Origin: a virus
Lineage: Duplodnaviria > Heunggongvirae > Uroviricota > Caudoviricetes
Length of the DNA: 18,167 nucleotides
Strand: one strand, 5' to 3'
Virus record (IMG/VR): IMGVR_UViG_2657245521_000006
Part shown: in pieces, positions 462-18,167 of the stretch
How positions within the stretch are numbered: position 1 is the first letter of the stretch
Layout of the letters: each line of letters opens with the position of its first letter
The notes under the pieces: generated by a model
What the model was told of the DNA's origin: nothing
The model's input: the letters and a program-made list of their open reading frames with translations, nothing else
The model's database searches: none
Position numbers and translations under genes: made by a program

Positions 462-848
462 ATGTCCGATCCGATTTCCGGTTCTGGGATGGCTGGTGGT
501 GTCCTGACGGGGGCCAGCGTCTATGGATTTCTATCCGGAACCGATTACGGCGTGGTGTTTGGCGCATTTGCCGGGGCTGTATTTTACATTGCAACCGCAG
601 CGGATCTAAGTGCAGCGCGCCGACTGGCATATTTTCTGGTGTCGTATATCGCGGGGATCCTTTGTTCCGGGCTGGTGGGTTCAAAGCTGGCTCAGGCTAC
701 CGGCTACAGTGATAAACCACTGGATGCCATTGGCGCCGTAATCGTTTCTGCTTTAGCCGTCAAAATCCTGACATTCCTGAATAATCAGGATGTCGGCTCG
801 CTGGTGGCGCTGATAACGCGCCGGGGAGGTTCAGGTGGTACAAAATGA
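462..848 (+). CDS. Phage holin (multi-TM small membrane protein heading the lysis cassette)
   Basis: 128 aa with several hydrophobic helices; strong SD AGAGGGGGG before ATG 462; sits immediately upstream of the endolysin. Confidence 0.7.
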   Translation: MSDPISGSGMAGGVLTGASVYGFLSGTDYGVVFGAFAGAVFYIATAADLSAARRLAYFLVSYIAGILCSGLVGSKLAQATGYSDKPLDAIGAVIVSALAVKILTFLNNQDVGSLVALITRRGGSGGTK

Positions 849-1116
849 CCCATCGGCAACTTTTAATGCATTGCTTTGTGCTGGGGTAGTGTTAACCCTG
901 ATGTTTTACCGTCGCGGCGACTCGCGACATCGACCGTGGATATCTCGCTTAGCGTGGCTGCTTACGGTCATCTACAGCGCCGTTCCGCTGGCGTATCTGT
1001 GCGGTATTTACCCGTACTCATCATGGGCCACTATCGGGGCCAACTTTATTTTCCTGTCCGTGCTGGTCGCCGTAAGAGGCAACGTGGCACGTCTGGTTGA
1101 TCATCTGAGGCACTAA
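835..1116 (+). CDS. Holin-associated small membrane protein (second holin component or antiholin candidate), GTG start
   Basis: 93 aa with about 3 predicted TM helices; GTG at 835 preceded by GGGAGG; overlaps the holin stop and ends in TAATG overlap with the endolysin start. Confidence 0.5.
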   Translation: MVQNDPSATFNALLCAGVVLTLMFYRRGDSRHRPWISRLAWLLTVIYSAVPLAYLCGIYPYSSWATIGANFIFLSVLVAVRGNVARLVDHLRH

Positions 1117-1730
1117 TGAACCAATCACAATTTCAGCAGGCGGCTGGTATCAGCGCCGGGCTTTCTGCGCGCTGGTTTCCGCACATTGACGCGGCAATGA
1201 AAGAGTTTGGCATTACAGCTACGAACGATCTGGCTATGTTCATCGCCCAGGTTGGGCATGAGTCTGCTGGCTTTACCTCGCTGGTGGAAAGCTTCAACTA
1301 CTCGGTAGAGGGGCTGAAGAAAACCTTTGGTAAACGGCTTACTCCTTATCAGTGTGAAATGCTGGGTCGTGTCGATGGTAAGCAGGTGGCCCACCAGCCG
1401 CAAATAGCCAATCTGGTTTATGGTGACCGCATGGGGAATAACAGCCAGGGTGACGGCTGGAAATATCGCGGTCGCGGCCTGCTGCAAATCACGGGTCGTG
1501 AGAACTACACCAAATGCGGCACGGCGCTGAAACTTGACCTTATCAGTACGCCAGAATTGCTAACGCAAGAGCGACATGCGGCTCGTTCGGCTGCGTGGTA
1601 CTTCACGTTACGCGGTTGCCTGATGTATTCGGGTGACGTGGCACGCGTTACGCAGATTATTAACGGCGGACAGAACGGCATTAAAGACCGCCGTGAACGT
1701 TACGCCAAAGCTAAAGCTGCACTGGTGTGA
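1116..1730 (+). CDS. Phage endolysin, glycoside hydrolase family 19 (chitinase-like lysozyme)
   Basis: 204 aa; motif FIAQVGHESAGF...LLQITGRENY typical of GH19 phage lysins (from memory); position inside lysis cassette. Confidence 0.88.
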   Translation: MNQSQFQQAAGISAGLSARWFPHIDAAMKEFGITATNDLAMFIAQVGHESAGFTSLVESFNYSVEGLKKTFGKRLTPYQCEMLGRVDGKQVAHQPQIANLVYGDRMGNNSQGDGWKYRGRGLLQITGRENYTKCGTALKLDLISTPELLTQERHAARSAAWYFTLRGCLMYSGDVARVTQIINGGQNGIKDRRERYAKAKAALV

Positions 1731-1737
1731 GGTCAGT

Positions 1738-2007
1738 ATGGGGCTTGAAATGATTATCGGCCTGGTTGTTGCTGTGCTGGCTGCAATTGCAGGTGCTTTT
1801 GGGCTGGGCAAATCACGCGGTACCAGTATCGCTGAAACAAAAGCGGACCAACAACGCACTGAAGAACGTGCAATAGCTATTGAAGCGGTTGCAGAACGCC
1901 GGGTAGAAACAACAAAAGGAGCCAGGGATGTACAACAGACTGTTAACCATATGCCTGATGACGCTGCTGATCGCGAGCTGCGCAAAAACTGGACACGTAA
2001 GGATTGA
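1738..2007 (+). CDS. i-spanin (Rz-like inner-membrane spanin)
   Basis: ATG 1738 preceded by GAGG; N-terminal TM helix MIIGLVVAVLAAIAGAFGL then charged helical periplasmic region; o-spanin gene embedded at its 3' end. Confidence 0.7.
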   Translation: MGLEMIIGLVVAVLAAIAGAFGLGKSRGTSIAETKADQQRTEERAIAIEAVAERRVETTKGARDVQQTVNHMPDDAADRELRKNWTRKD

Positions 2008-2149
2008 GGTTATTGACACCGGCTGCGATTGGGTAAAACCCATCTACGGCACTGCTCATGATTGGGAAGTGCTGGACAGGCAGACCAAGAAAGACATTCT
2101 TATGCATAACAAAGTGTGGATGTCAAACTGTGGCTCTATAACTTATTGA
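1928..2149 (+). CDS. o-spanin (Rz1-like outer-membrane lipoprotein), overlapped architecture
   Basis: Starts inside the i-spanin in another frame with perfect SD AAGGAG 8 nt upstream; lipobox L-I-A-S-C (Cys18); extends past the i-spanin stop. Confidence 0.65.
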   Translation: MYNRLLTICLMTLLIASCAKTGHVRIEVIDTGCDWVKPIYGTAHDWEVLDRQTKKDILMHNKVWMSNCGSITY

Positions 2150-5398: not shown

Positions 5399-5833
5399 AT
5401 GGCTGGTGGAATTCGATCGTCTGGAGGGGGGAGAAAACCCATCTTACCCGCCGGACAAAAAAGTAAATTAACCCGAATTGCACCTCCTGCAGAGTTAATG
5501 GGGGAGGCTGCAATAAGACTGTGGAAAACCCAAAGTAAAATTCTGATCGAAAGAGGCGTGTTTGAACTGGAGGATGCGCCCCTGCTTGTGGCTTACTGCA
5601 ATGCCTTCCATTTAATGCTTGAAGCTGAAAAATTGCTCTCGTCAAGCCTGACGACCGAAAGTGAAATGGGGGGATTAAAGAAACATCCCGCCGTTAACAT
5701 CAGAAATGATTCAGTTTCCCAGATAGCCCGTCTTGGTTCGCTTCTGGGGTTGGATCCGCTCAGCCGAATTCGGATGCGTGGCGGTGGAAATGATCCTGAC
5801 GACGACGGGAATGAATTTGATGAGTTTGACTGA
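5399..5833 (+). CDS. Terminase small subunit (P27-family-like)
   Basis: 144 aa; SD AGAGGAG before ATG; 1-nt TGATG overlap with the large terminase; acidic C-terminal tail. Confidence 0.8.
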   Translation: MAGGIRSSGGGRKPILPAGQKSKLTRIAPPAELMGEAAIRLWKTQSKILIERGVFELEDAPLLVAYCNAFHLMLEAEKLLSSSLTTESEMGGLKKHPAVNIRNDSVSQIARLGSLLGLDPLSRIRMRGGGNDPDDDGNEFDEFD

Positions 5834-7554
5834 TGGCTACATATCCGAACGTCAATGCAGCGAACCAGTATGCAAGAGATGTTGTTGGCGGGAAGATCCT
5901 TGCTTGTCAGTTAACTGTGCTTGCCTGTCAAAGACACCTTGATGATTTGGAACGTGCGAAGGATCCTGCCTGGCCTTACCGGTTTGATAAAAACAAGGCC
6001 GAGCGATTTTTGCGCTTTGCTCAGAAGATGCCTCATACGGCCGGTGAATGGGCCAGGAAGAAACTACGAATAGAATTTGAGCCCTGGCAAAAGTTTGCCC
6101 TTGGTGTGCCATTTGGATGGGTTAATAAGAAGTCCGGATTCCGGCGTTTTTCTGAAATATATATTGAGGTGCCCAGGAAAAATGGGAAATCCGCAATTGC
6201 AGCTGCCGTTGGTAATTATATGTTTTGCGCCGATGGTGAACATGGTGCAGAAGTGTACTGTGGCGCCACTACTGAAAAACAAGCCTGGAAAGTCTTCTCT
6301 CCCGCTCTACAAATGGTAAAAAAACTCCCGGCATTGCGACAAAAATACTCAGTCAAACCCTGGGCGAAGAAAATGACCCGTCCGGATGGCTCTGTTTTTG
6401 CGCCAGTCATCGGCGATCCTGGTGACGGCGATTCCCCTTCATGTGCAATTATTGATGAATATCACGAGCATCAGACTGATGCACTTTATACAACGATGAC
6501 TACCGGGATGGGGGCAAGGGAGCAGCCTGTTACTCTGATTATTACTACAGCGGGTTATGACATTACTTCGCCCTGTTACGAGAAGCGTGTGCAGATAGTG
6601 GAAATTCTCCGCCGTAACCGGACAGGAGAAGAAAACGAGACAATATTTGGCATTATATACGGTCTGGATGACGATGATGACTGGACCAGGCCCGAAGCGC
6701 TGATTAAAGCAAATCCCAACTTTGGTGTTTCTGTTAAAGAGCATTTTCTTCGGGCGAAGCAGTTACTGGGAATATCCAATCCCAGCCAGACTAACAAAAT
6801 TCTGACCAAGCACTTTAACCGGTGGGTAAGTGCAAAAACGGTTTTTTATGACCTGCAAAGATGGATGGCTGCTGCGGATAAAAACCTTAAATTATCTGAT
6901 TTTGTTGATGAGGATTGCTGGCTGGGTATTGATCTGGCCTCGAAAGTAGACCTGAATGCCGTAGTGCCAGTGTTCAGGAGAGAGGTTGCTGGTATAACCC
7001 ATTTTTACTGTGTGGGGCCGCTGTTCTGGGCGCCTGAAGATACAATTTATTCACCAGATCCCACGCTGAAAACCATTTCTGAACGTTACCAGTCATTTGT
7101 GAAACAGGGGGTATTGATACCTACTGAAGGGGCTGAGGTGGATTATCGGTTAATTTTTGAGTCAATTCTTCAGTTACGCCAGCAGGTTAAAATTGTCCAG
7201 TGCCCGATAGATCCTTACGGGGCAACATCATTGCGCCATCTGCTTGAAGAGGAGGGGCTGGAATCCGTTGAGATCAGGCAAAATTTTACACATATGAGTG
7301 ATCCAATGCGTGAAATTGAGGCGGCGCTGGCATCAGGACGCTTTCATCATGACGGTAACCCTATCATGAACTGGTGCATCCAGAATGTTATAGGGCGTTA
7401 CTTACCAGGAAGCGATGACATTGTTCGCCCAGGGAAGGAGAGAAAGCAAAACAAAATAGATGGCGCGGTAGGACTAATGATGGGAGTCGGGCGAGCCATG
7501 CTGAACGGAACTGTCAGTAAATCGGCTTATGATGAGGAAGATATTACATGTTGA
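5833..7554 (+). CDS. Terminase large subunit (ATPase/nuclease)
   Basis: 573 aa; P-loop-like VPRKNGKSAIAAAVGNYMF then acidic segment CAIIDEYHEH; typical length and position. Confidence 0.93.
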   Translation: MATYPNVNAANQYARDVVGGKILACQLTVLACQRHLDDLERAKDPAWPYRFDKNKAERFLRFAQKMPHTAGEWARKKLRIEFEPWQKFALGVPFGWVNKKSGFRRFSEIYIEVPRKNGKSAIAAAVGNYMFCADGEHGAEVYCGATTEKQAWKVFSPALQMVKKLPALRQKYSVKPWAKKMTRPDGSVFAPVIGDPGDGDSPSCAIIDEYHEHQTDALYTTMTTGMGAREQPVTLIITTAGYDITSPCYEKRVQIVEILRRNRTGEENETIFGIIYGLDDDDDWTRPEALIKANPNFGVSVKEHFLRAKQLLGISNPSQTNKILTKHFNRWVSAKTVFYDLQRWMAAADKNLKLSDFVDEDCWLGIDLASKVDLNAVVPVFRREVAGITHFYCVGPLFWAPEDTIYSPDPTLKTISERYQSFVKQGVLIPTEGAEVDYRLIFESILQLRQQVKIVQCPIDPYGATSLRHLLEEEGLESVEIRQNFTHMSDPMREIEAALASGRFHHDGNPIMNWCIQNVIGRYLPGSDDIVRPGKERKQNKIDGAVGLMMGVGRAMLNGTVSKSAYDEEDITC

Positions 7555-7727
7555 TCACTCTTTTAAGTTTTATTATCGGCCTCACCGGAGCCGGGTTAGT
7601 GTCTGCCGGTGCCTGGCTTATTTCACCTGCAGCCGGGCTTATTACTGGCGGTTCAATCTGCCTGCTGTGGTCATTTTTAATCGCGAAATCGATGTCCGCC
7701 AGCGTAATTAAATCAGGGGGTGAATAA
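7548..7727 (+). CDS. Small two-TM membrane protein (59 aa), translationally coupled between terminase and portal; not in the supplied ORF track
   Basis: Hand translation MLITLLSFIIGLTGAGLVSAGAWLISPAAGLITGGSICLLWSFLIAKSMSASVIKSGGE; ATG 7548 overlaps the terminase stop and its TAA overlaps portal ATG 7727 (TAATG). Confidence 0.4.
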   Translation: MLITLLSFIIGLTGAGLVSAGAWLISPAAGLITGGSICLLWSFLIAKSMSASVIKSGGE

Positions 7728-8986
7728 TGTTCATTCCCCAGATGTTTCGGGGTAAATCTCAGTCTGGTGGTGGTTTCTGGCAGGCGATGCTGGGTGGGGT
7801 GAGTTCCAGCCAGAGCAAGGCGGGGATCATTATCACTCCTGAAACCGCACTGGCGTTATCGGCGGTCCGGGCATGCGTAACGCTTCTGGCAGAATCGGTG
7901 GCGCAGTTGCCGTGTGAACTTTACAGGCGAGGCGCTAACGGAGGCCGTGAACGGGCGACTGACCACCCTGTTTATGATCTGATTCATTCCCAGCCCAACA
8001 AAAAAGACACCTCGTTTGAATACTTTGAGCAGCAACAGGGCCTGCTCGGGCTGGAGGGAAATTGCTACTCGATCATCGACAGGGACGGGAAAGGGTATCC
8101 CCGCGAATTAATCCCGGTTAATCCCAAAAAAGTCATCGTCCTGAAAGGGCCTGACGGGATGCCCTATTATGAACTCCCCGAAATTGGCGAAACGTTGCCA
8201 ATGCGCATGATGCATCATGTGAAGGTTTTCTCGCTGGATGGTTATATCGGTAGCTCTCCGATCCAGACGAACGCAGACGTTCTTGGGCTGAACCTGGCCG
8301 TTGAAGAGCATGCTTCTCAGGTTTTTCGCCGTGGCACAACGATGAGCGGCGTTATTGAGCGACCAAAGGAGGCTCCGACAATAAAGAACCAGGAGAAGAT
8401 TGACCAACTTCTTGCTAAATGGACGGATCGTTATTCCGGTATGCGTAATGCCTTTTCTGTCGCATTGCTTCAGGAAGGGATGAGCTACAAACAGCTATCT
8501 CAGGATAATGAGAAAGCGCAGCTGTTGCAGTCCCGCCAGTGGGGCGTGGAGGAAGTTTGCCGACTCTATAAAATCCCGCCTCATATGGTGCAGATGCTGG
8601 CGAAAGCCACAAATAACAACATTGAGCATCAGGGGCTGCAGTTCGTCATGTATACGCTTTTAGCCTGGCTGAAGCGTCATGAAGGCGCATTAATGCGCGA
8701 TCTGCTTTTACCCAGCGAGCGCGGTAGTCTGTACATTGAATTCAATGTATCCGGCCTGCTGCGCGGGGATCAGAAGTCACGCTATGAATCTTATGCGCTG
8801 GGCCGTCAGTGGGGCTGGTTATCGGTTAATGACATTCGCCGCATGGAGAACCTTCCTCCCATCGCCGGAGGGGACAAATACCTGACGCCTCTGAATATGG
8901 TCGACAGTAAACAAATCTTACCTGGCAATAACGCGCCAACAGCTAAACAACTGGCAGAAATCGAAACTATTCTGGCCAGAGCCTGA
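7727..8986 (+). CDS. Portal protein (HK97-family-like)
   Basis: 419 aa directly after terminase; sequence character of HK97-type portals (from memory). Confidence 0.9.
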   Translation: MFIPQMFRGKSQSGGGFWQAMLGGVSSSQSKAGIIITPETALALSAVRACVTLLAESVAQLPCELYRRGANGGRERATDHPVYDLIHSQPNKKDTSFEYFEQQQGLLGLEGNCYSIIDRDGKGYPRELIPVNPKKVIVLKGPDGMPYYELPEIGETLPMRMMHHVKVFSLDGYIGSSPIQTNADVLGLNLAVEEHASQVFRRGTTMSGVIERPKEAPTIKNQEKIDQLLAKWTDRYSGMRNAFSVALLQEGMSYKQLSQDNEKAQLLQSRQWGVEEVCRLYKIPPHMVQMLAKATNNNIEHQGLQFVMYTLLAWLKRHEGALMRDLLLPSERGSLYIEFNVSGLLRGDQKSRYESYALGRQWGWLSVNDIRRMENLPPIAGGDKYLTPLNMVDSKQILPGNNAPTAKQLAEIETILARA

Positions 8987-13770: not shown

Positions 13771-14118
13771 ATGAAAAATCTGAAAAGCGCGCTGCTGTCT
13801 GCCACCCATACGGTTGCGGACTGTACCCTGCTGGGCGTGCCGGTGCACATCCGTCGTATGAGTGCACTCGAGGCGGCAGACTACGACGATGCCATCGCAG
13901 ATGCCCGCGCAGCGAATAATGCGCTGGTCCCCGCCCGACTCAGTGCCGGACTCATCCTTTCAGTGCTGGTGGATGAAAACGGGAATGCCATTCCACCCAA
14001 AAGCCTCCCCACCGTGGATGAGTTGCTGGCCGTACATGATAACGCCGCCCTGATTGAGGCTGTGTCAGTTATTCAGCGGCACAGTTACGGGACGCTGGAG
14101 GAGGCGCAAAAAAACTGA
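13771..14118 (+). CDS. Tail assembly chaperone (gpG-like)
   Basis: 115 aa between major tail and tape measure genes; ends at a slippery heptamer. Confidence 0.75.
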   Translation: MKNLKSALLSATHTVADCTLLGVPVHIRRMSALEAADYDDAIADARAANNALVPARLSAGLILSVLVDENGNAIPPKSLPTVDELLAVHDNAALIEAVSVIQRHSYGTLEEAQKN

Positions 14119-14357
14119 GGCAATCTCCCTGGCTGTTGCTGGCTTACCAGCTGGCTGACCGCCTGGGAGAACCCGATCCACTGAAAATTCTGTCTCTGCC
14201 AGCTTCTGTTCTGATGGGGTGGCTGGCGTTTCTTAATCTTCCGGAAATTAATGGTATGGCACCTGGCGACCCGCCCGACAGCGGACTGAATGTACCGGCC
14301 ATTTCACCGGATGATACTGCCGCGGCCTGCGCTGCTTTTATGAGGGTGATGAAATGA
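13771..14357 (+). CDS. Tail assembly chaperone frameshift fusion product (gpGT-like), via -1 shift at 14109-14115
   Basis: Post-shift frame reads ...KLRQSPWLLLAYQLADRLGEPDPLK... (the track ORF 14136..14357 is this frame); extension stop TGA 14355-14357 overlaps tape measure ATG 14354. Confidence 0.6.
14109..14115 (+). promoter_or_regulatory. Programmed -1 ribosomal frameshift slippery heptamer A_AAA_AAC
   Basis: In-frame codons CAA AAA AAC TGA; the -1 frame is open from here to 14357 and ends in overlap with the tape measure start. Confidence 0.6.
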
Positions 14358-17326
14358 GTGGTAATGCCGGAACGCTGGCGGTCAGTCTGCATGTGAACAG
14401 CGCCTCTTTCAAAGCCGACCTTATGGATGCTTATCAGACCGGCAGCCGTGAGGCCCGGCGATTTGCTGAGTCCACCCGCAGGGAAATGAAAGAGACCGGG
14501 GATGCCATCGGCAGTGTGGGTACCAGTGCCGGAGGGCTGGGACGCACTTTCGAAGGCCTTTCCTCGCGCCTGAAAACAGGAAGCGGCGGCTTTGATCAAC
14601 TGCGTAGTGCTCTCAATGGTTTTGCTGCCACGGGGAATGTGTCCGCCAGTACGCTGGCTAATGCCCTGGTACCGGCGATATCCCGGACGCTGACGGGGGC
14701 TGAACAACTGAAAGGTGTACTCGCGCAACAGCGGGACGCGTTCAGCAAAACCGCTCAGGCGGCATATGATGCCGCCCGGGCGCAAATCCAGTCGGCGCAG
14801 GCGGCAAAACAAAAAGCACTGGATGTGGCACAGAGCGCGGCAAAAGACTATGAAGCAGCGAAGGCTGTCGAAGAAAATGCCGTGGCGCTGGCGCGTCATT
14901 ACGATCAGCAGCAGAAAGTCAATAAAGAGTACGGTCTTGCGGTCAGTTACAGAGAGGAATACCGGAAGATAAACGCGCAGCTTAAAGAGTCAGACATGGC
15001 GGCCAGCGTCGCCAAACAACGGGTGGCTGCGGCGGGAAAGGCAGCGGCAGAAGCGGAGGCACTGGAAGCACTCGGAAAGTCGAAGCTCTCGGATGCCATG
15101 CGTCTTATCAGCGCCAGGAACTATGAGATTTCTCTGTCAGCGCGTGCCGCCGCCGCGGGTACCGCGTTGCTGAACGGTGCACTGGCGATGGTAGGCGGGC
15201 CGGTCGGTCTGGGGATTATTGCGCTGGTTTCTGGCGTGACGGCACTGTGGTCTGCCTACAGCAAAGCTGAAGAAAAAACGAAAGCCCTGAATGCGGCATT
15301 ACTGCAAGGCAATAGTGGCGCGTCACTCAGCCTGACCCGGATCCGGGCGCTGAATAAAAGCCTGGGTGACACGGATGGCTCCATGAAGGCAGTGACGGCC
15401 GCGGTTAAGGCCGGGTTCAGCGGCGAGATGCTGGATCGCGTGTCCTCACTCGGTAGCCAGCTGGAATCACTGGGGGGGAATGCTGATGAGCTGGTCCGAC
15501 AGCTGTCATCCATCAGTGGCGATCCGGTCAAAGCGATGCAGGATGCCACGCAGCAGGGGTACGAATTTAATGCTGCGCAGATAGAGCAGATTGCCACCCT
15601 GGCCCGCCTGGGTAAAACCGCCGAGGCGGTGGCGCTGGTGCAGAAAATCATGCTTGATGACGTTGCGGACAAAATGAAGGAGCAACAGCGTCAGACTGAG
15701 GAGAGCATTGGCTGGTGGGAGAAGCTGAAGAAAGCTGTTTCTGAAGGGCTTGAGGGCTACGCTTCAGCGCAGATTGAGACCAGTCGCGCGATGGCGGCCG
15801 CGGTGGGGGTGGATATTGATGAGCCCGCCCGAAAGCTCAAAGAGAAGCGGGACGAAGAGAAAAAACAGGAGGAAGACCGGGCTCAGGCCGCCCGTCAGCG
15901 CCAGGATGAGCAGAGCAAAGAAATCACCGCCCAGATAAATCTGGCCGCCTGGATCAAGGCCGGGACGGATAAAACCCGTCTTGCAGCAGAAGCCACCGCC
16001 GATCTCAGTACCCGCTATAAGGCCGGAAAAATCACCGCTGATGAGTACGCTTCTGCCCTGAGAGGGATAGACAAACTCTACGGTGATAAAAAAACCGGGG
16101 TGTCCGCCCATCAGGACAGCGAGGGTGTTCGCCGTCTGGCGCAACTGAAGCAACAGGAAGTGGTGCTGAAAGCGCAGGGGCGTGAAACGGAGCGGATGGG
16201 TGAAAGTCAGAAAAAATTACTGGCTTTTGAACAGGAAATCGCGTCTTACGCCGGGAAAAAACTGACAAAGGTCCAGGAAAGCGTACTGGCTATGCAGGAT
16301 CAACTGCGTGCCCAGCTTGAAACAAACGCAGCCCTGGAGAAGCAAAACGCACAACGTAATCTTGCCGTGACGCTTGAAAAGCAACTCCGGGATGTCAGGG
16401 AGGAAACGGCACGCCGTCAGCAGGAGCAGAATAACGCTGCTGCTCAGGTGACGATGAGCGACCGGGAATATGAGCAGATGGTCACCCTGCAACAGATCCG
16501 TGAGGATTTTGCGCAGAAACAGAAAGCGCTCGATGAGGAGGTAAAAGACCATTCATCAGTGCTTTACCAGGCACAGACACAGGCGCTTGCCGAAGAAATG
16601 CAGAGGCAGACTGAAATCGTCAAAAAAGGCGCCGAAGACAAAAAAGCGGCTGAGGAGGATTTTGCGGGAGCTGCCGCCGCAGGCATGAAGAACTGGATGG
16701 ACAAGGCCGGTAACTATGCACAGCAGATAAAGGACGCAGTGTCGAACGCCATGGACGGGCTGGCGGATAATATTGTCGCCACCCTTAACGGCAATAAAAG
16801 CTCATGGCGTGACTGGGGGACGATGATACTCCAGACCATTCAGAAAATTCTGGTGAATGCCGCGCTGGTTAACGGCCTGAAGGCACTGGGCGGATCACTG
16901 GGTGGTGCCGGAGGGATCCTGGGAGGGATTGGCAGTGCAATTTCCGGTGTGGTGGGTAATGCCCGGGGGGGCGTCTATGACTCTCCGGGACTCAGTGCTT
17001 ACAGCTCTACTGTCGTCGACAGGCCCACGCTGTTTCCGTTTGCCAAAGGGGCGGGACTGATGGGGGAAGCGGGGCCGGAAGCGATTATGCCGCTGACCAG
17101 AGACAGTAAAGGTCGTCTGGCCGTCACCGCGACGGGAATGGAAGGGACGGGAGGTGGCGTGGTGGTTAATCAGCAGTTCAGTGTGCACATACAGAATGAC
17201 GGCAGTAACGGTGAAATAGGCCCCGGCGCGCTGAAGATGGTGTATGAGATTGCCGAACAGGCAGCAATGAAAACACTGACTGTGCAGGGGCGTGATGGTG
17301 GCAGGCTGAGCGGAGCATACAGATGA
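14354..17326 (+). CDS. Tail tape measure protein (lambda gpH-like)
   Basis: 990 aa, Ala/Gln/Glu-rich coiled coil with Gly-rich C-terminal region; after G/GT and before gpM. Confidence 0.9.
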   Translation: MSGNAGTLAVSLHVNSASFKADLMDAYQTGSREARRFAESTRREMKETGDAIGSVGTSAGGLGRTFEGLSSRLKTGSGGFDQLRSALNGFAATGNVSASTLANALVPAISRTLTGAEQLKGVLAQQRDAFSKTAQAAYDAARAQIQSAQAAKQKALDVAQSAAKDYEAAKAVEENAVALARHYDQQQKVNKEYGLAVSYREEYRKINAQLKESDMAASVAKQRVAAAGKAAAEAEALEALGKSKLSDAMRLISARNYEISLSARAAAAGTALLNGALAMVGGPVGLGIIALVSGVTALWSAYSKAEEKTKALNAALLQGNSGASLSLTRIRALNKSLGDTDGSMKAVTAAVKAGFSGEMLDRVSSLGSQLESLGGNADELVRQLSSISGDPVKAMQDATQQGYEFNAAQIEQIATLARLGKTAEAVALVQKIMLDDVADKMKEQQRQTEESIGWWEKLKKAVSEGLEGYASAQIETSRAMAAAVGVDIDEPARKLKEKRDEEKKQEEDRAQAARQRQDEQSKEITAQINLAAWIKAGTDKTRLAAEATADLSTRYKAGKITADEYASALRGIDKLYGDKKTGVSAHQDSEGVRRLAQLKQQEVVLKAQGRETERMGESQKKLLAFEQEIASYAGKKLTKVQESVLAMQDQLRAQLETNAALEKQNAQRNLAVTLEKQLRDVREETARRQQEQNNAAAQVTMSDREYEQMVTLQQIREDFAQKQKALDEEVKDHSSVLYQAQTQALAEEMQRQTEIVKKGAEDKKAAEEDFAGAAAAGMKNWMDKAGNYAQQIKDAVSNAMDGLADNIVATLNGNKSSWRDWGTMILQTIQKILVNAALVNGLKALGGSLGGAGGILGGIGSAISGVVGNARGGVYDSPGLSAYSSTVVDRPTLFPFAKGAGLMGEAGPEAIMPLTRDSKGRLAVTATGMEGTGGGVVVNQQFSVHIQNDGSNGEIGPGALKMVYEIAEQAAMKTLTVQGRDGGRLSGAYR

Positions 17327-17667
17327 CAGCGCAACTGAAAACATTTCACTGGTCGCCCAGAGAAGGGATGAAGATGGCATCAAAGCCGTCTGTTGTCACG
17401 GTGAGATTTGGTGACGGGTATTCGCAGCGCAGGGCGGCAGGGCTGAATGCGCAACTGAAAACGTGGTCGCCGGTATTCCGGGTTCAGGGGGAAAGGGAGA
17501 TTCGCGCCCTGAACGATTTTCTGGATGCGCATGCAGGGTACCGGGCTTTTTTGTGGCGACCGCCGCTGGTGAACCGGCTGGTCAGAGTGATATGCCCTGA
17601 ATGGGATGTCAGCAATCTGGGGGGGTACACTGATTTCTCATGCAGGTTTGAGCAGGTCGTGATTTAA
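17323..17667 (+). CDS. Minor tail protein M (lambda gpM-like)
   Basis: 114 aa; ...VRFGDGYSQRRAAGLNAQLKTWSP...FLWRPP...FEQVVI closely parallels lambda M (...VRFGDGYSQRAPAGLNANLKTYS...FLWTPP...FEQVVN, memory); ATGA overlap with tape measure stop. Confidence 0.9.
   Translation: MTAQLKTFHWSPREGMKMASKPSVVTVRFGDGYSQRRAAGLNAQLKTWSPVFRVQGEREIRALNDFLDAHAGYRAFLWRPPLVNRLVRVICPEWDVSNLGGYTDFSCRFEQVVI

Positions 17668-17785: not shown

Positions 17786-18167
<382 letters not shown>

Follow-up and report, generated by a model that had tools for sequence, protein, structure and literature searches.

A YmfR-family membrane protein gene between large terminase and portal in a lambdoid prophage, and its association with portal type

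A short gene lies between the genes for the large terminase (TerL) and the portal protein in phages phiKO2, P27 and ST64B, and its product is recorded as a 'membrane protein' in phiKO2 (gp3, RefSeq) and as a 'putative integral membrane protein' in phiP27 (L37). In Escherichia coli K-12 MG1655, prophage e14 holds ymfR (b1150, 'IPR020297 domain-containing protein'), flanked by the terminase chimera ymfN and the portal remnant beeE. The e14 gene order including ymfR appears in a published gene list (PMC12956098), and ymfR is SOS-co-induced with other e14 genes (PMC10012262). We found no functional study of any family member in the literature on ymfR, IPR020297 and small membrane proteins between terminase and portal. 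Here we describe the open reading frame (ORF) of 59 codons at 7548-7727 (+) in an 18,167-nt stretch of Caudoviricetes DNA (IMG/VR record IMGVR_UViG_2657245521_000006; 'the window' denotes this whole stretch), which occupies the same slot and whose product we predict to be a small membrane hairpin.

The closest homologue from a characterised genome is phiKO2 gp3, which is 73% identical to the window ORF over all 59 residues, shows like overlaps at both ends and precedes a portal 91% identical to that of the window. It differs in its GTG start and in a TerL that is just 56% identical. In addition, phiKO2 is a linear plasmid prophage, whereas the element in the window has a lambdoid Q-lysis-HNH-terminase arrangement. 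Homologues of the phiKO2 gp3 type are also carried by plasmid prophages of Klebsiella, Citrobacter and Salmonella. K-12 YmfR, phiP27 L37 and ST64B Sb3 resemble the window ORF at 43-45% identity over ~40 residues by BLASTP (for YmfR, 45% over 38 residues, pairwise E 1e-12). They belong to the same length class (60 residues), share the GAWL-x-x-P-x-A-G turn and sit in the same terminase-portal slot with a stop that overlaps the portal start. However, their N-terminal helix has diverged so that only residues 19-58 align, and their partner portal is of another type, with ~35% identity to that of the window. The P27/ST64B type also has an 11-nt gap between terminase and small ORF where the window has an overlap.

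The small gene and its protein family

We are close to certain that the ORF at 7548-7727 is genuine, a late gene belonging to a lambdoid prophage with an HK97-type head, and that it encodes a 59-residue member of the YmfR / PHROG 502 family. Related loci were retrieved in three independent ways, by similarity to the ORF, to the portal and to TerL. In all 83 loci retrieved with the ORF, the frame was intact at exactly 59 codons with zero indels, its start overlapped the TerL stop in the form RTGYTRA, and its stop overlapped the portal start as TAATG or TGATG. The family ORF was likewise intact in 74/74 analysable loci retrieved with the portal. All but three of these retained the portal-start overlap: one form, of 58 residues, stops 4 nt short of the portal ATG, and two others, of 65 residues, extend 23 nt into the portal gene. 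Pairwise comparison of 40 distinct nucleotide versions gave a ratio of nonsynonymous to synonymous divergence (dN/dS) of ~0.18 in the frame of the ORF, and of 1.3 and 1.6 at the same sites in the +1 and +2 frames. The dS of the small ORF equalled that of its flanks in the same loci and its dN was 4-6 times higher (at locus L004, dN was 0.19 for the small ORF, 0.045 for TerL and 0.033 for the portal). These data indicate that the small protein is constrained, less tightly so than the assembly enzymes around it.

An earlier, sequence-only reading of the window had proposed this ORF, with a translation identical to ours, as a coding frame that starts with ATG and overlaps both neighbours. Both overlaps are present (ATGTTGA at the TerL stop, TAATG at the portal start), and purifying selection bears out the proposal that the frame is genuinely coding. 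Frame-disrupting indels in relatives, which that reading had named as a sign of a chance ORF, occurred in none of the 83 ORF-retrieved and 74 portal-retrieved loci. The 60-residue ORF in a different frame that it mentioned does exist, at 7529-7711. We rejected this alternative because it has no PHROG or Pfam match, shows a dN/dS above 1 in its frame and is carried by only some relatives. One antisense frame of 7548-7727 lacks stop codons in the window and most relatives and has one stop in some; we took it to be a by-product of codon composition and no gene.

Two further statements of the sequence-only reading, that the ORF was unannotated and that a membrane protein was unexpected in a packaging operon, did not survive comparison with databases. 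The identical 59-residue protein is a called gene on 11 public contigs and is listed by NCBI as 'hypothetical protein [Escherichia coli]', it belongs to a PHROG family and has named homologues, and such a gene is a recurrent, catalogued feature of the TerL/portal junction in one portal clade. The ORF matched PHROG 502 ('membrane protein') at E 1.9e-15 over residues 1-50. Its PHROG matches were confined to families 502 and 7105, neither in the lysis category, and PHROG files family 502 under 'moron, auxiliary metabolic gene and host takeover'. No Pfam (E <= 0.01), NCBIfam or PADLOC family matched it. A DNA search with a 701-nt segment returned no near-identical match in our phage set (50,697 phage records, 2.3 Gb) or in complete E. 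coli genomes. At the protein level, tblastn against the phage set found phiKO2 gp3 (E 3e-17), phiP27 L37 (E 7e-5), ST64B Sb3, SfI/SfII/SfIV, many Klebsiella plasmid-prophage phages, Yersinia PY54 and YeP1-3, as well as Marinobacter AS1 and Azospirillum Cd. A tblastn search of the same set with a high-GC family variant found nothing. Of 5426 complete E. coli genomes, 1386 match the P27-type TerL-ymfR-portal segment, and in the listed records among them PGAP annotates the gene as ymfR. An exhaustive hidden Markov model (HMM) search of 1.84 billion representatives recovered 124 clusters at E <= 1e-3, nearly all of 50-70 residues. By its sequence similarity, its 50-70-residue two-helix form with the motif, and its place in the terminase-portal slot beside a PF04860-type portal, the small ORF is a member of the already catalogued YmfR / PHROG 502 / IPR020297 family and not a novel one.

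Both gene junctions carry Shine-Dalgarno-like motifs (Table 1). The GAGGAAG nucleotides upstream of the small ORF are kept in the 83 ORF-retrieved loci, even where TerL is only ~54% identical, and we infer that they form its putative ribosome-binding site. AGGGGG, within the last codons of the small ORF, is the putative ribosome-binding site of the portal gene. Purine-rich C-terminal codons recur across the family as GGE, KEG and GDS endings and coincide with the portal site, so that part of the apparent conservation of the tail lies at the nucleotide level. Coding is thus dual at 7534-7554 and 7715-7729, where the end codons of TerL and of the small ORF double as putative ribosome-binding sites. 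From the overlaps of the genes, the small ORF is probably coupled in translation to TerL upstream and to the portal downstream.

The product is very probably an inner-membrane helical hairpin that has both ends in the cytoplasm, a GAWLxxPxAG turn directed outward, and stripes of glycine and small residues that pack the two predicted helices together. Residues 1-46 are uncharged and the sole charged residues are K47, K55 and E59, which leave the C-tail at net +1. An AlphaFold2 model built from a 17-sequence alignment is a helical hairpin with helices at residues 2-22 and 27-56 (mean predicted local distance difference test score, pLDDT, 67.6). Among 139 family representatives, G14, G21 and G35 are conserved at 98-100%, and A22, W23, L24, P27, A29, G30 and I32 at 72-89% (W23 83%, P27 83%, G30 89%). 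The conservation of the G21-G30 region makes the turn and its flanks, GAWL-x-x-P-x-A-G, the most conserved element of the protein. The mean number of lysine plus arginine residues per sequence is 1.06 at the N-end before the first transmembrane (TM) helix, 0.06 in the turn and 2.39 in the C-tail. Read with the positive-inside rule, such a distribution predicts an N-in/C-in topology with the conserved turn on the outer face. A profile search of the PDB gave only noise (E >= 0.27) and Foldseek returned no BFVD match below E 0.9 for the AlphaFold2 hairpin; these searches were uninformative, the fold of a helical hairpin being too simple to be matched. Hydropathy, AlphaFold2 and charge statistics together support, as a prediction, the two-TM membrane protein that had been proposed from the letters of the window. 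The accompanying figure of more than 60% hydrophobic residues depends on the count: A, V, L, I, M, F, W and C make up 57.6%, which falls short of it, and the value rises to 73% when glycine is added.

The survey also exposed annotation errors in public records. In SfV (L171, U82619.2), an unannotated 53-residue YmfR-family ORF (HMM E 2.9e-9) lies at 1260-1421. Since this ORF begins at the TerL stop and extends beyond the annotated portal start (1363), the portal start in this record has probably been set too early. The PY54 and SfIV records have no annotated feature beneath the tblastn match. Homologues are labelled 'head-tail joining protein W' in ON470580.1, ON470603.1, ON470584.1 and PQ793804.1, the records of vB_EcoM-606R7, vB_EcoM-720R4, vB_EcoM-689R6 and Salmonella phage As1. 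Lambda gpW is a soluble head-completion protein that functions in head-tail joining. We rejected this identity, since the window ORF has no match in Pfam, gpW included, and differs from the soluble gpW fold in its 46 uncharged residues of predicted membrane hairpin; the label is a positional mis-annotation taken over from lambda. For the window itself, the consequence is that 7548-7727 should be entered as a YmfR-family membrane gene and the different-frame 60-residue ORF dropped.

Linkage to the portal and distribution of the gene

We observed that the small ORF switches with the portal when terminase and portal recombine. In the 74 analysable portal-anchored loci, whose portals are 51-100% identical, the family ORF always ended at the portal start or a few nucleotides from it, while TerL identity in the same loci ranged from 24 to 100%. 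A context-blind scan with a degenerate DNA motif for GAWLxxPPAG gave a similar picture. All 77 ORFs that it returned matched the family HMM. Of the 73 loci that have downstream sequence, 71 show a portal homologue as the next ORF, and in 67 loci the ORF upstream is a TerL homologue. This set includes variants of 60-72% GC that have basic N-terminal extensions and portals just 25-30% identical to that of P27. Retrieval with TerL yielded ~18 loci (L358-L376 excluding L362, L363 and L367) in which TerL is 81-83% identical to that of the window over residues 1-558 and is followed by a different, SfV/K305-like portal. In 16/16 of these loci with analysable downstream sequence, an SfV-type small ORF (VKSLIIDVAGLAGFG...) stands in place of the window type.

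Across pairs of loci, 436 combined a portal identity of at least 85% with a TerL identity below 60%, and no pair showed the reverse. The identity of the small ORF correlated with that of the portal at a Spearman coefficient of 0.75 and with that of TerL at 0.63. Since this pairwise sample is biased by the way in which loci were retrieved, the TerL-anchored retrieval was added as a correction. Homology to the Citrobacter and Klebsiella plasmid prophages begins at window ~7521-7527, just 5' of the small ORF, and this position, at TerL residue ~558, is a recurrent recombination junction. Taken together, the retrievals and the junction place a boundary of module recombination between TerL and the small ORF, such that each portal type has its own hairpin subtype. 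One locus stood out by its host: a 52,353-bp contig in the assembly of the alpha-proteobacterium Limoniibacter endophyticus KCTC 42097 (L005) carries TerL, small ORF and portal of the Klebsiella phiKO2-like plasmid-prophage type, with a portal 90% identical to that of the window. Either a plasmid prophage that came from a different host or a contaminated assembly is suggested by this match.

A small gene of this kind lies immediately 5' of the portal in phages of Enterobacteria, Vibrio, Marinobacter and alpha-proteobacteria. The homologue in Vibrio phage K305 has 67 residues, and others occur in Marinobacter, Azospirillum and Beijerinckiaceae. In the mycobacteriophages Courthouse and Omega, gp11 ('membrane protein') and gp12, respectively, fill the same slot, overlap the portal gene by 4 nt and resemble the window ORF as hairpin membrane proteins (64 residues) between terminase and portal. 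They score 27 bits against the family HMM, where 2000 shuffles reach at most 9.7 and the reversed sequence gives -2.6; in a database-wide search, a score of 27 bits would not be significant. The tryptophan of the motif is missing, they have a polar N-terminal extension and their host is mycobacterial. We regard them as probable, not proven, remote homologues. No such ORF was present in HK97, Pseudomonas TC7, Caulobacter W2, Moraxella Mcat30 or a Dorea phage, despite their related portals. HK97 and TC7 couple TerL directly to the portal, and Streptococcus Javan426 has two unrelated hydrophilic ORFs in place of the small membrane ORF. Because related portals occur without it, the gene is accessory: stable within portal lineages and not required for HK97-type assembly in general.

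Possible roles of the hairpin

The family is very common: the P27-type segment by itself is present in roughly one in four complete E. coli genomes, K-12 among them. Its place is at the centre of the best-studied operon of phage assembly, and it switches with the portal type. This raises the question of whether HK97-type head assembly or packaging includes a membrane-linked step, or whether a membrane effector is hidden in the packaging operon. The best explanation that we can offer for the locus as a whole, with a probability of roughly 0.35, is a real late gene for a membrane hairpin, translationally coupled to its neighbours, that acts as an accessory to portal and prohead. The role in it is tentative and held with low confidence: the hairpin may be an accessory, non-essential inner-membrane factor in the portal/prohead-initiation step of head morphogenesis, which we propose since, in genetic terms, the gene is part of the portal side of the module. 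Were the hairpin inserted co-translationally, it would draw the late mRNA and the nascent portal to the membrane. Its short basic tail in the cytoplasm could also tether or nucleate the portal ring or the prohead initiation complex there, and the hairpin itself would probably be no component of the virion; in Omega, virion mass spectrometry lists the portal and not gp12 (PMC3706429). The analogy is with T4, in which the portal initiator gp20 is membrane-bound and depends on gp40, a membrane-associated chaperone of gp20 initiation (PMC9958956). This likeness is one of proposed function only. T4 gp40 scores -1.8 bits against the family HMM, has 114 largely hydrophilic residues and is not encoded beside the portal gene.

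Several points weigh against this proposal. The tethering step rests only on gene order and co-segregation, and tight linkage with a conserved recombination junction could yield co-segregation without physical interaction. Portal assembly in the lineage does not need the small protein, since HK97, TC7, W2, Mcat30 and the Dorea phage lack its gene. The literature searched yielded no experiment on any member of the family, and none of the 124 representative clusters contains a fusion to portal or TerL. A dN of 4-6 times that of the portal is looser than expected of a tight structural partner, and the glycine-zipper-like stripes would fit an oligomeric pore equally well. The AlphaFold2 hairpin is of moderate confidence only (pLDDT 67.6), and a hydrophobic protein of 6-7 kDa that is missed by virion mass spectrometry is weak evidence for its absence.

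The pore suggested by these stripes would make the product a late pore former or a modulator of lysis timing (holin, antiholin or viroporin-like), whose hairpin oligomerises through the glycine and small-residue stripes (conserved G14/G21 and G30-G34-C38-S42) and alters the permeability or energisation of the inner membrane. Class II holins have two TM helices in an N-in/C-in topology, a highly charged basic C-terminal domain and often a dual start. The window ORF has their general shape, with two TM helices, a predicted N-in/C-in topology and a short basic C-tail, and like S21 and other pinholins it is small, late and glycine-rich in its helices; it also shares the late transcript with the lysis genes. 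However, the window ORF lies outside the lysis cassette, its C-tail is weakly charged (net +1) and it has neither a dual-start motif nor a second in-frame start near the N-terminus. A complete lysis cassette already stands 5.4 kb upstream, for which reason we rejected the ORF as the primary holin. No Pfam or PHROG holin family matches it, and the holins of the window itself score <= 5.7 bits against the family HMM. Its fixed position next to the portal and its switching with portal type would also be left unexplained. We consider a pore-forming or lysis-timing function unlikely. A very weak hint in its favour, of altered permeability without lethality, is that the ASKA ymfR clone, which grew and was picked in the first round at 0.1 mM isopropyl-thiogalactoside, was among 65 membrane-protein clones of that round in an Ala-Ala tolerance screen and dropped out in the second (PMC10299036).

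Other features of the gene would suit a superinfection-exclusion or injection-blocking membrane protein, similar to T4 Imm or HK97 gp15, inside the structural operon: a small inner-membrane protein with a conserved turn predicted to face outward, an amino-acid sequence that evolves faster than those next to it (dN 4-6 times higher than in the flanks, dS being equal), the PHROG category of the family, and dispensability in related phages. Membrane exclusion genes do occur within late operons, as with HK97 gp15 and cor of phi80 and N15. Yet the small ORF has no promoter-like site or terminator of its own and a GC content like that of its flanks, and it occupies one fixed position in 74/74 portal relatives at 51-100% identity, with absences confined to portal lineages that are more distant. 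Its conservation reaches from enterobacterial phages to those of mycobacteria, and it accompanies both siphovirus tape-measure-type and SfV/P27-type tails, unlike sporadic, tail-specific exclusion genes; it has no PADLOC match, and T4 Imm scores 0.6 bits against the family HMM. This leaves exclusion a distinctly improbable role. We think it very unlikely that the product is a virion-associated or ejected hydrophobic protein that sits near the portal or in the head and inserts into the host membrane at DNA delivery. Its gene lies among head genes, next to the portal with which it is co-inherited, but an uncharged 46-residue hairpin would be expected to insert into the membrane of the producer cell, the gene is absent from related phages that still deliver DNA, and Omega gp12 was not among the virion proteins found by mass spectrometry, which detected portal and minor proteins (PMC3706429). 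Nor can we give more than the slightest weight to a translational coupler or spacer, or a chance ORF, whose peptide has no function. Both ends do overlap the neighbours, the C-terminal codons double as the putative portal ribosome-binding site, and the direct TerL-portal coupling of HK97 and TC7 would fit such a device. This reading is largely refuted by the selection analysis, with a dN/dS of 0.18 and no constraint in shifted frames. In addition, G14, G21, W23, P27, G30 and G35 are near-invariant in the 139 representatives, down to below 40% identity, and length and hairpin architecture are kept across phyla. The remaining probability falls to functions outside these readings.

If the accessory role in portal and prohead initiation is extended to the family, YmfR hairpins might be portal-type-specific membrane anchors or nucleators for the portal ring and prohead initiation, or co-translational membrane-targeting devices for the portal mRNA. 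We hold this generalisation to be doubtful. Were it true, head assembly that begins at the membrane, so far documented for T4 (gp20/gp40), would be an ancient option open to many HK97-type phages, in Proteobacteria as well as Actinobacteria, and the K-12 y-gene ymfR would be assigned a function.

Genomic context and other features of the window

A contig with the identical gene shows the order of the surrounding module. Upstream on the same strand lie a Q antiterminator gene, two holin-family genes, an endolysin gene, an HNH gene, and the genes for the small terminase (TerS) and TerL. Downstream follow the portal, an S49 protease, an HK97-fold capsid gene, connector genes and a siphovirus tail. 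With Q to TerL upstream and head and tail genes downstream, the small ORF falls inside the late gene block. The window contained no sigma-70-like promoter site at 6500-7548, and its terminator-like sites occurred only at chance level, with a lone chance-level 5-bp stem at 7605. The TerL-portal gap has no Rfam element. An RNA element or terminator in the gap was rejected on these grounds. The GC content of the small ORF is 48.3%, next to 46.9% for TerL and 52.2% for the portal. With no promoter-like site or terminator of its own and a GC content like that of its neighbours, the gene is no moron in the promoter-plus-terminator (Hendrix) sense.

Table 1. Coordinates of the small gene, its protein segments and its two junctions in the window
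Feature	Position	Strand	Basis
Large terminase TerL, upstream partner in the putative coupling	5833..7554	+	PHROG 9, E 3e-173; Pfam TerL_ATPase and TerL_nuclease
GAGGAAG, Shine-Dalgarno-like, 7 nt 5' of the small-ORF start, inside the last TerL codons (..DEEDITC*)	7534..7540	+	Sequence
ATGTTGA, small-ORF start overlapping the TerL stop (TGA 7552-7554)	7548..7554	+	Sequence
59-residue YmfR / PHROG 502-family membrane protein, coding sequence including stop	7548..7727	+	ORF list, translation, PHROG 502, dN/dS, identical called protein
Predicted TM helix 1, residues 2-24, G14 and G21 near-invariant	7551..7619	+	Hydropathy; AlphaFold2 helix 2-22; conservation
Tight turn of GAWL-x-x-P-x-A-G, residues 25-29, predicted outside the cytoplasm	7620..7634	+	Conservation; lysine plus arginine statistics
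Predicted TM helix 2, residues 30-46, stripe G30/G34/C38/S42, invariant G35	7635..7685	+	Hydropathy; AlphaFold2; conservation
Short weakly basic C-tail, residues 47-59, predicted cytoplasmic	7686..7724	+	Charge statistics; tail sequence variable among homologues
AGGGGG, Shine-Dalgarno-like, 6 nt 5' of the portal ATG, within the small-ORF S-G-G-E codons	7715..7720	+	Sequence
TAATG, small-ORF stop (TAA) overlapping the portal ATG	7725..7729	+	Sequence
Portal protein, co-segregating downstream gene	7727..8986	+	Pfam PF04860, E 7e-101

The complete lysis cassette of the window (462-2149), which precedes the small ORF by ~5.4 kb, comprises two holin-family genes, an endolysin and an Rz/Rz1-like spanin pair. 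The holin-family genes stand in tandem at 462-848 (+) and 835-1116 (+), match PHROG 198 / Phage_holin_8 and PHROG 217 / Phage_holin_3_7, respectively, and may be a holin/antiholin pair. They precede an endolysin of the glycoside hydrolase 19 type and the Rz/Rz1-like spanins. Near the other end of the window, 17925-18047 (+) is a full-length match to Rfam isrC (RF01387), an Hfq-binding small RNA, and scores 150 bits where the gathering score is 39; the minor tail gene at 17323-17667 ends just 5' of it. In the tail region, the adjacent ORFs at 13771-14118 (+) and 14136-14357 (+) match positions 1-114 and 124-194 of the phrog_25875 tail-assembly-chaperone profile, a pattern that is the signature of the programmed-frameshift chaperone pair of the G/GT type upstream of the tape measure gene.

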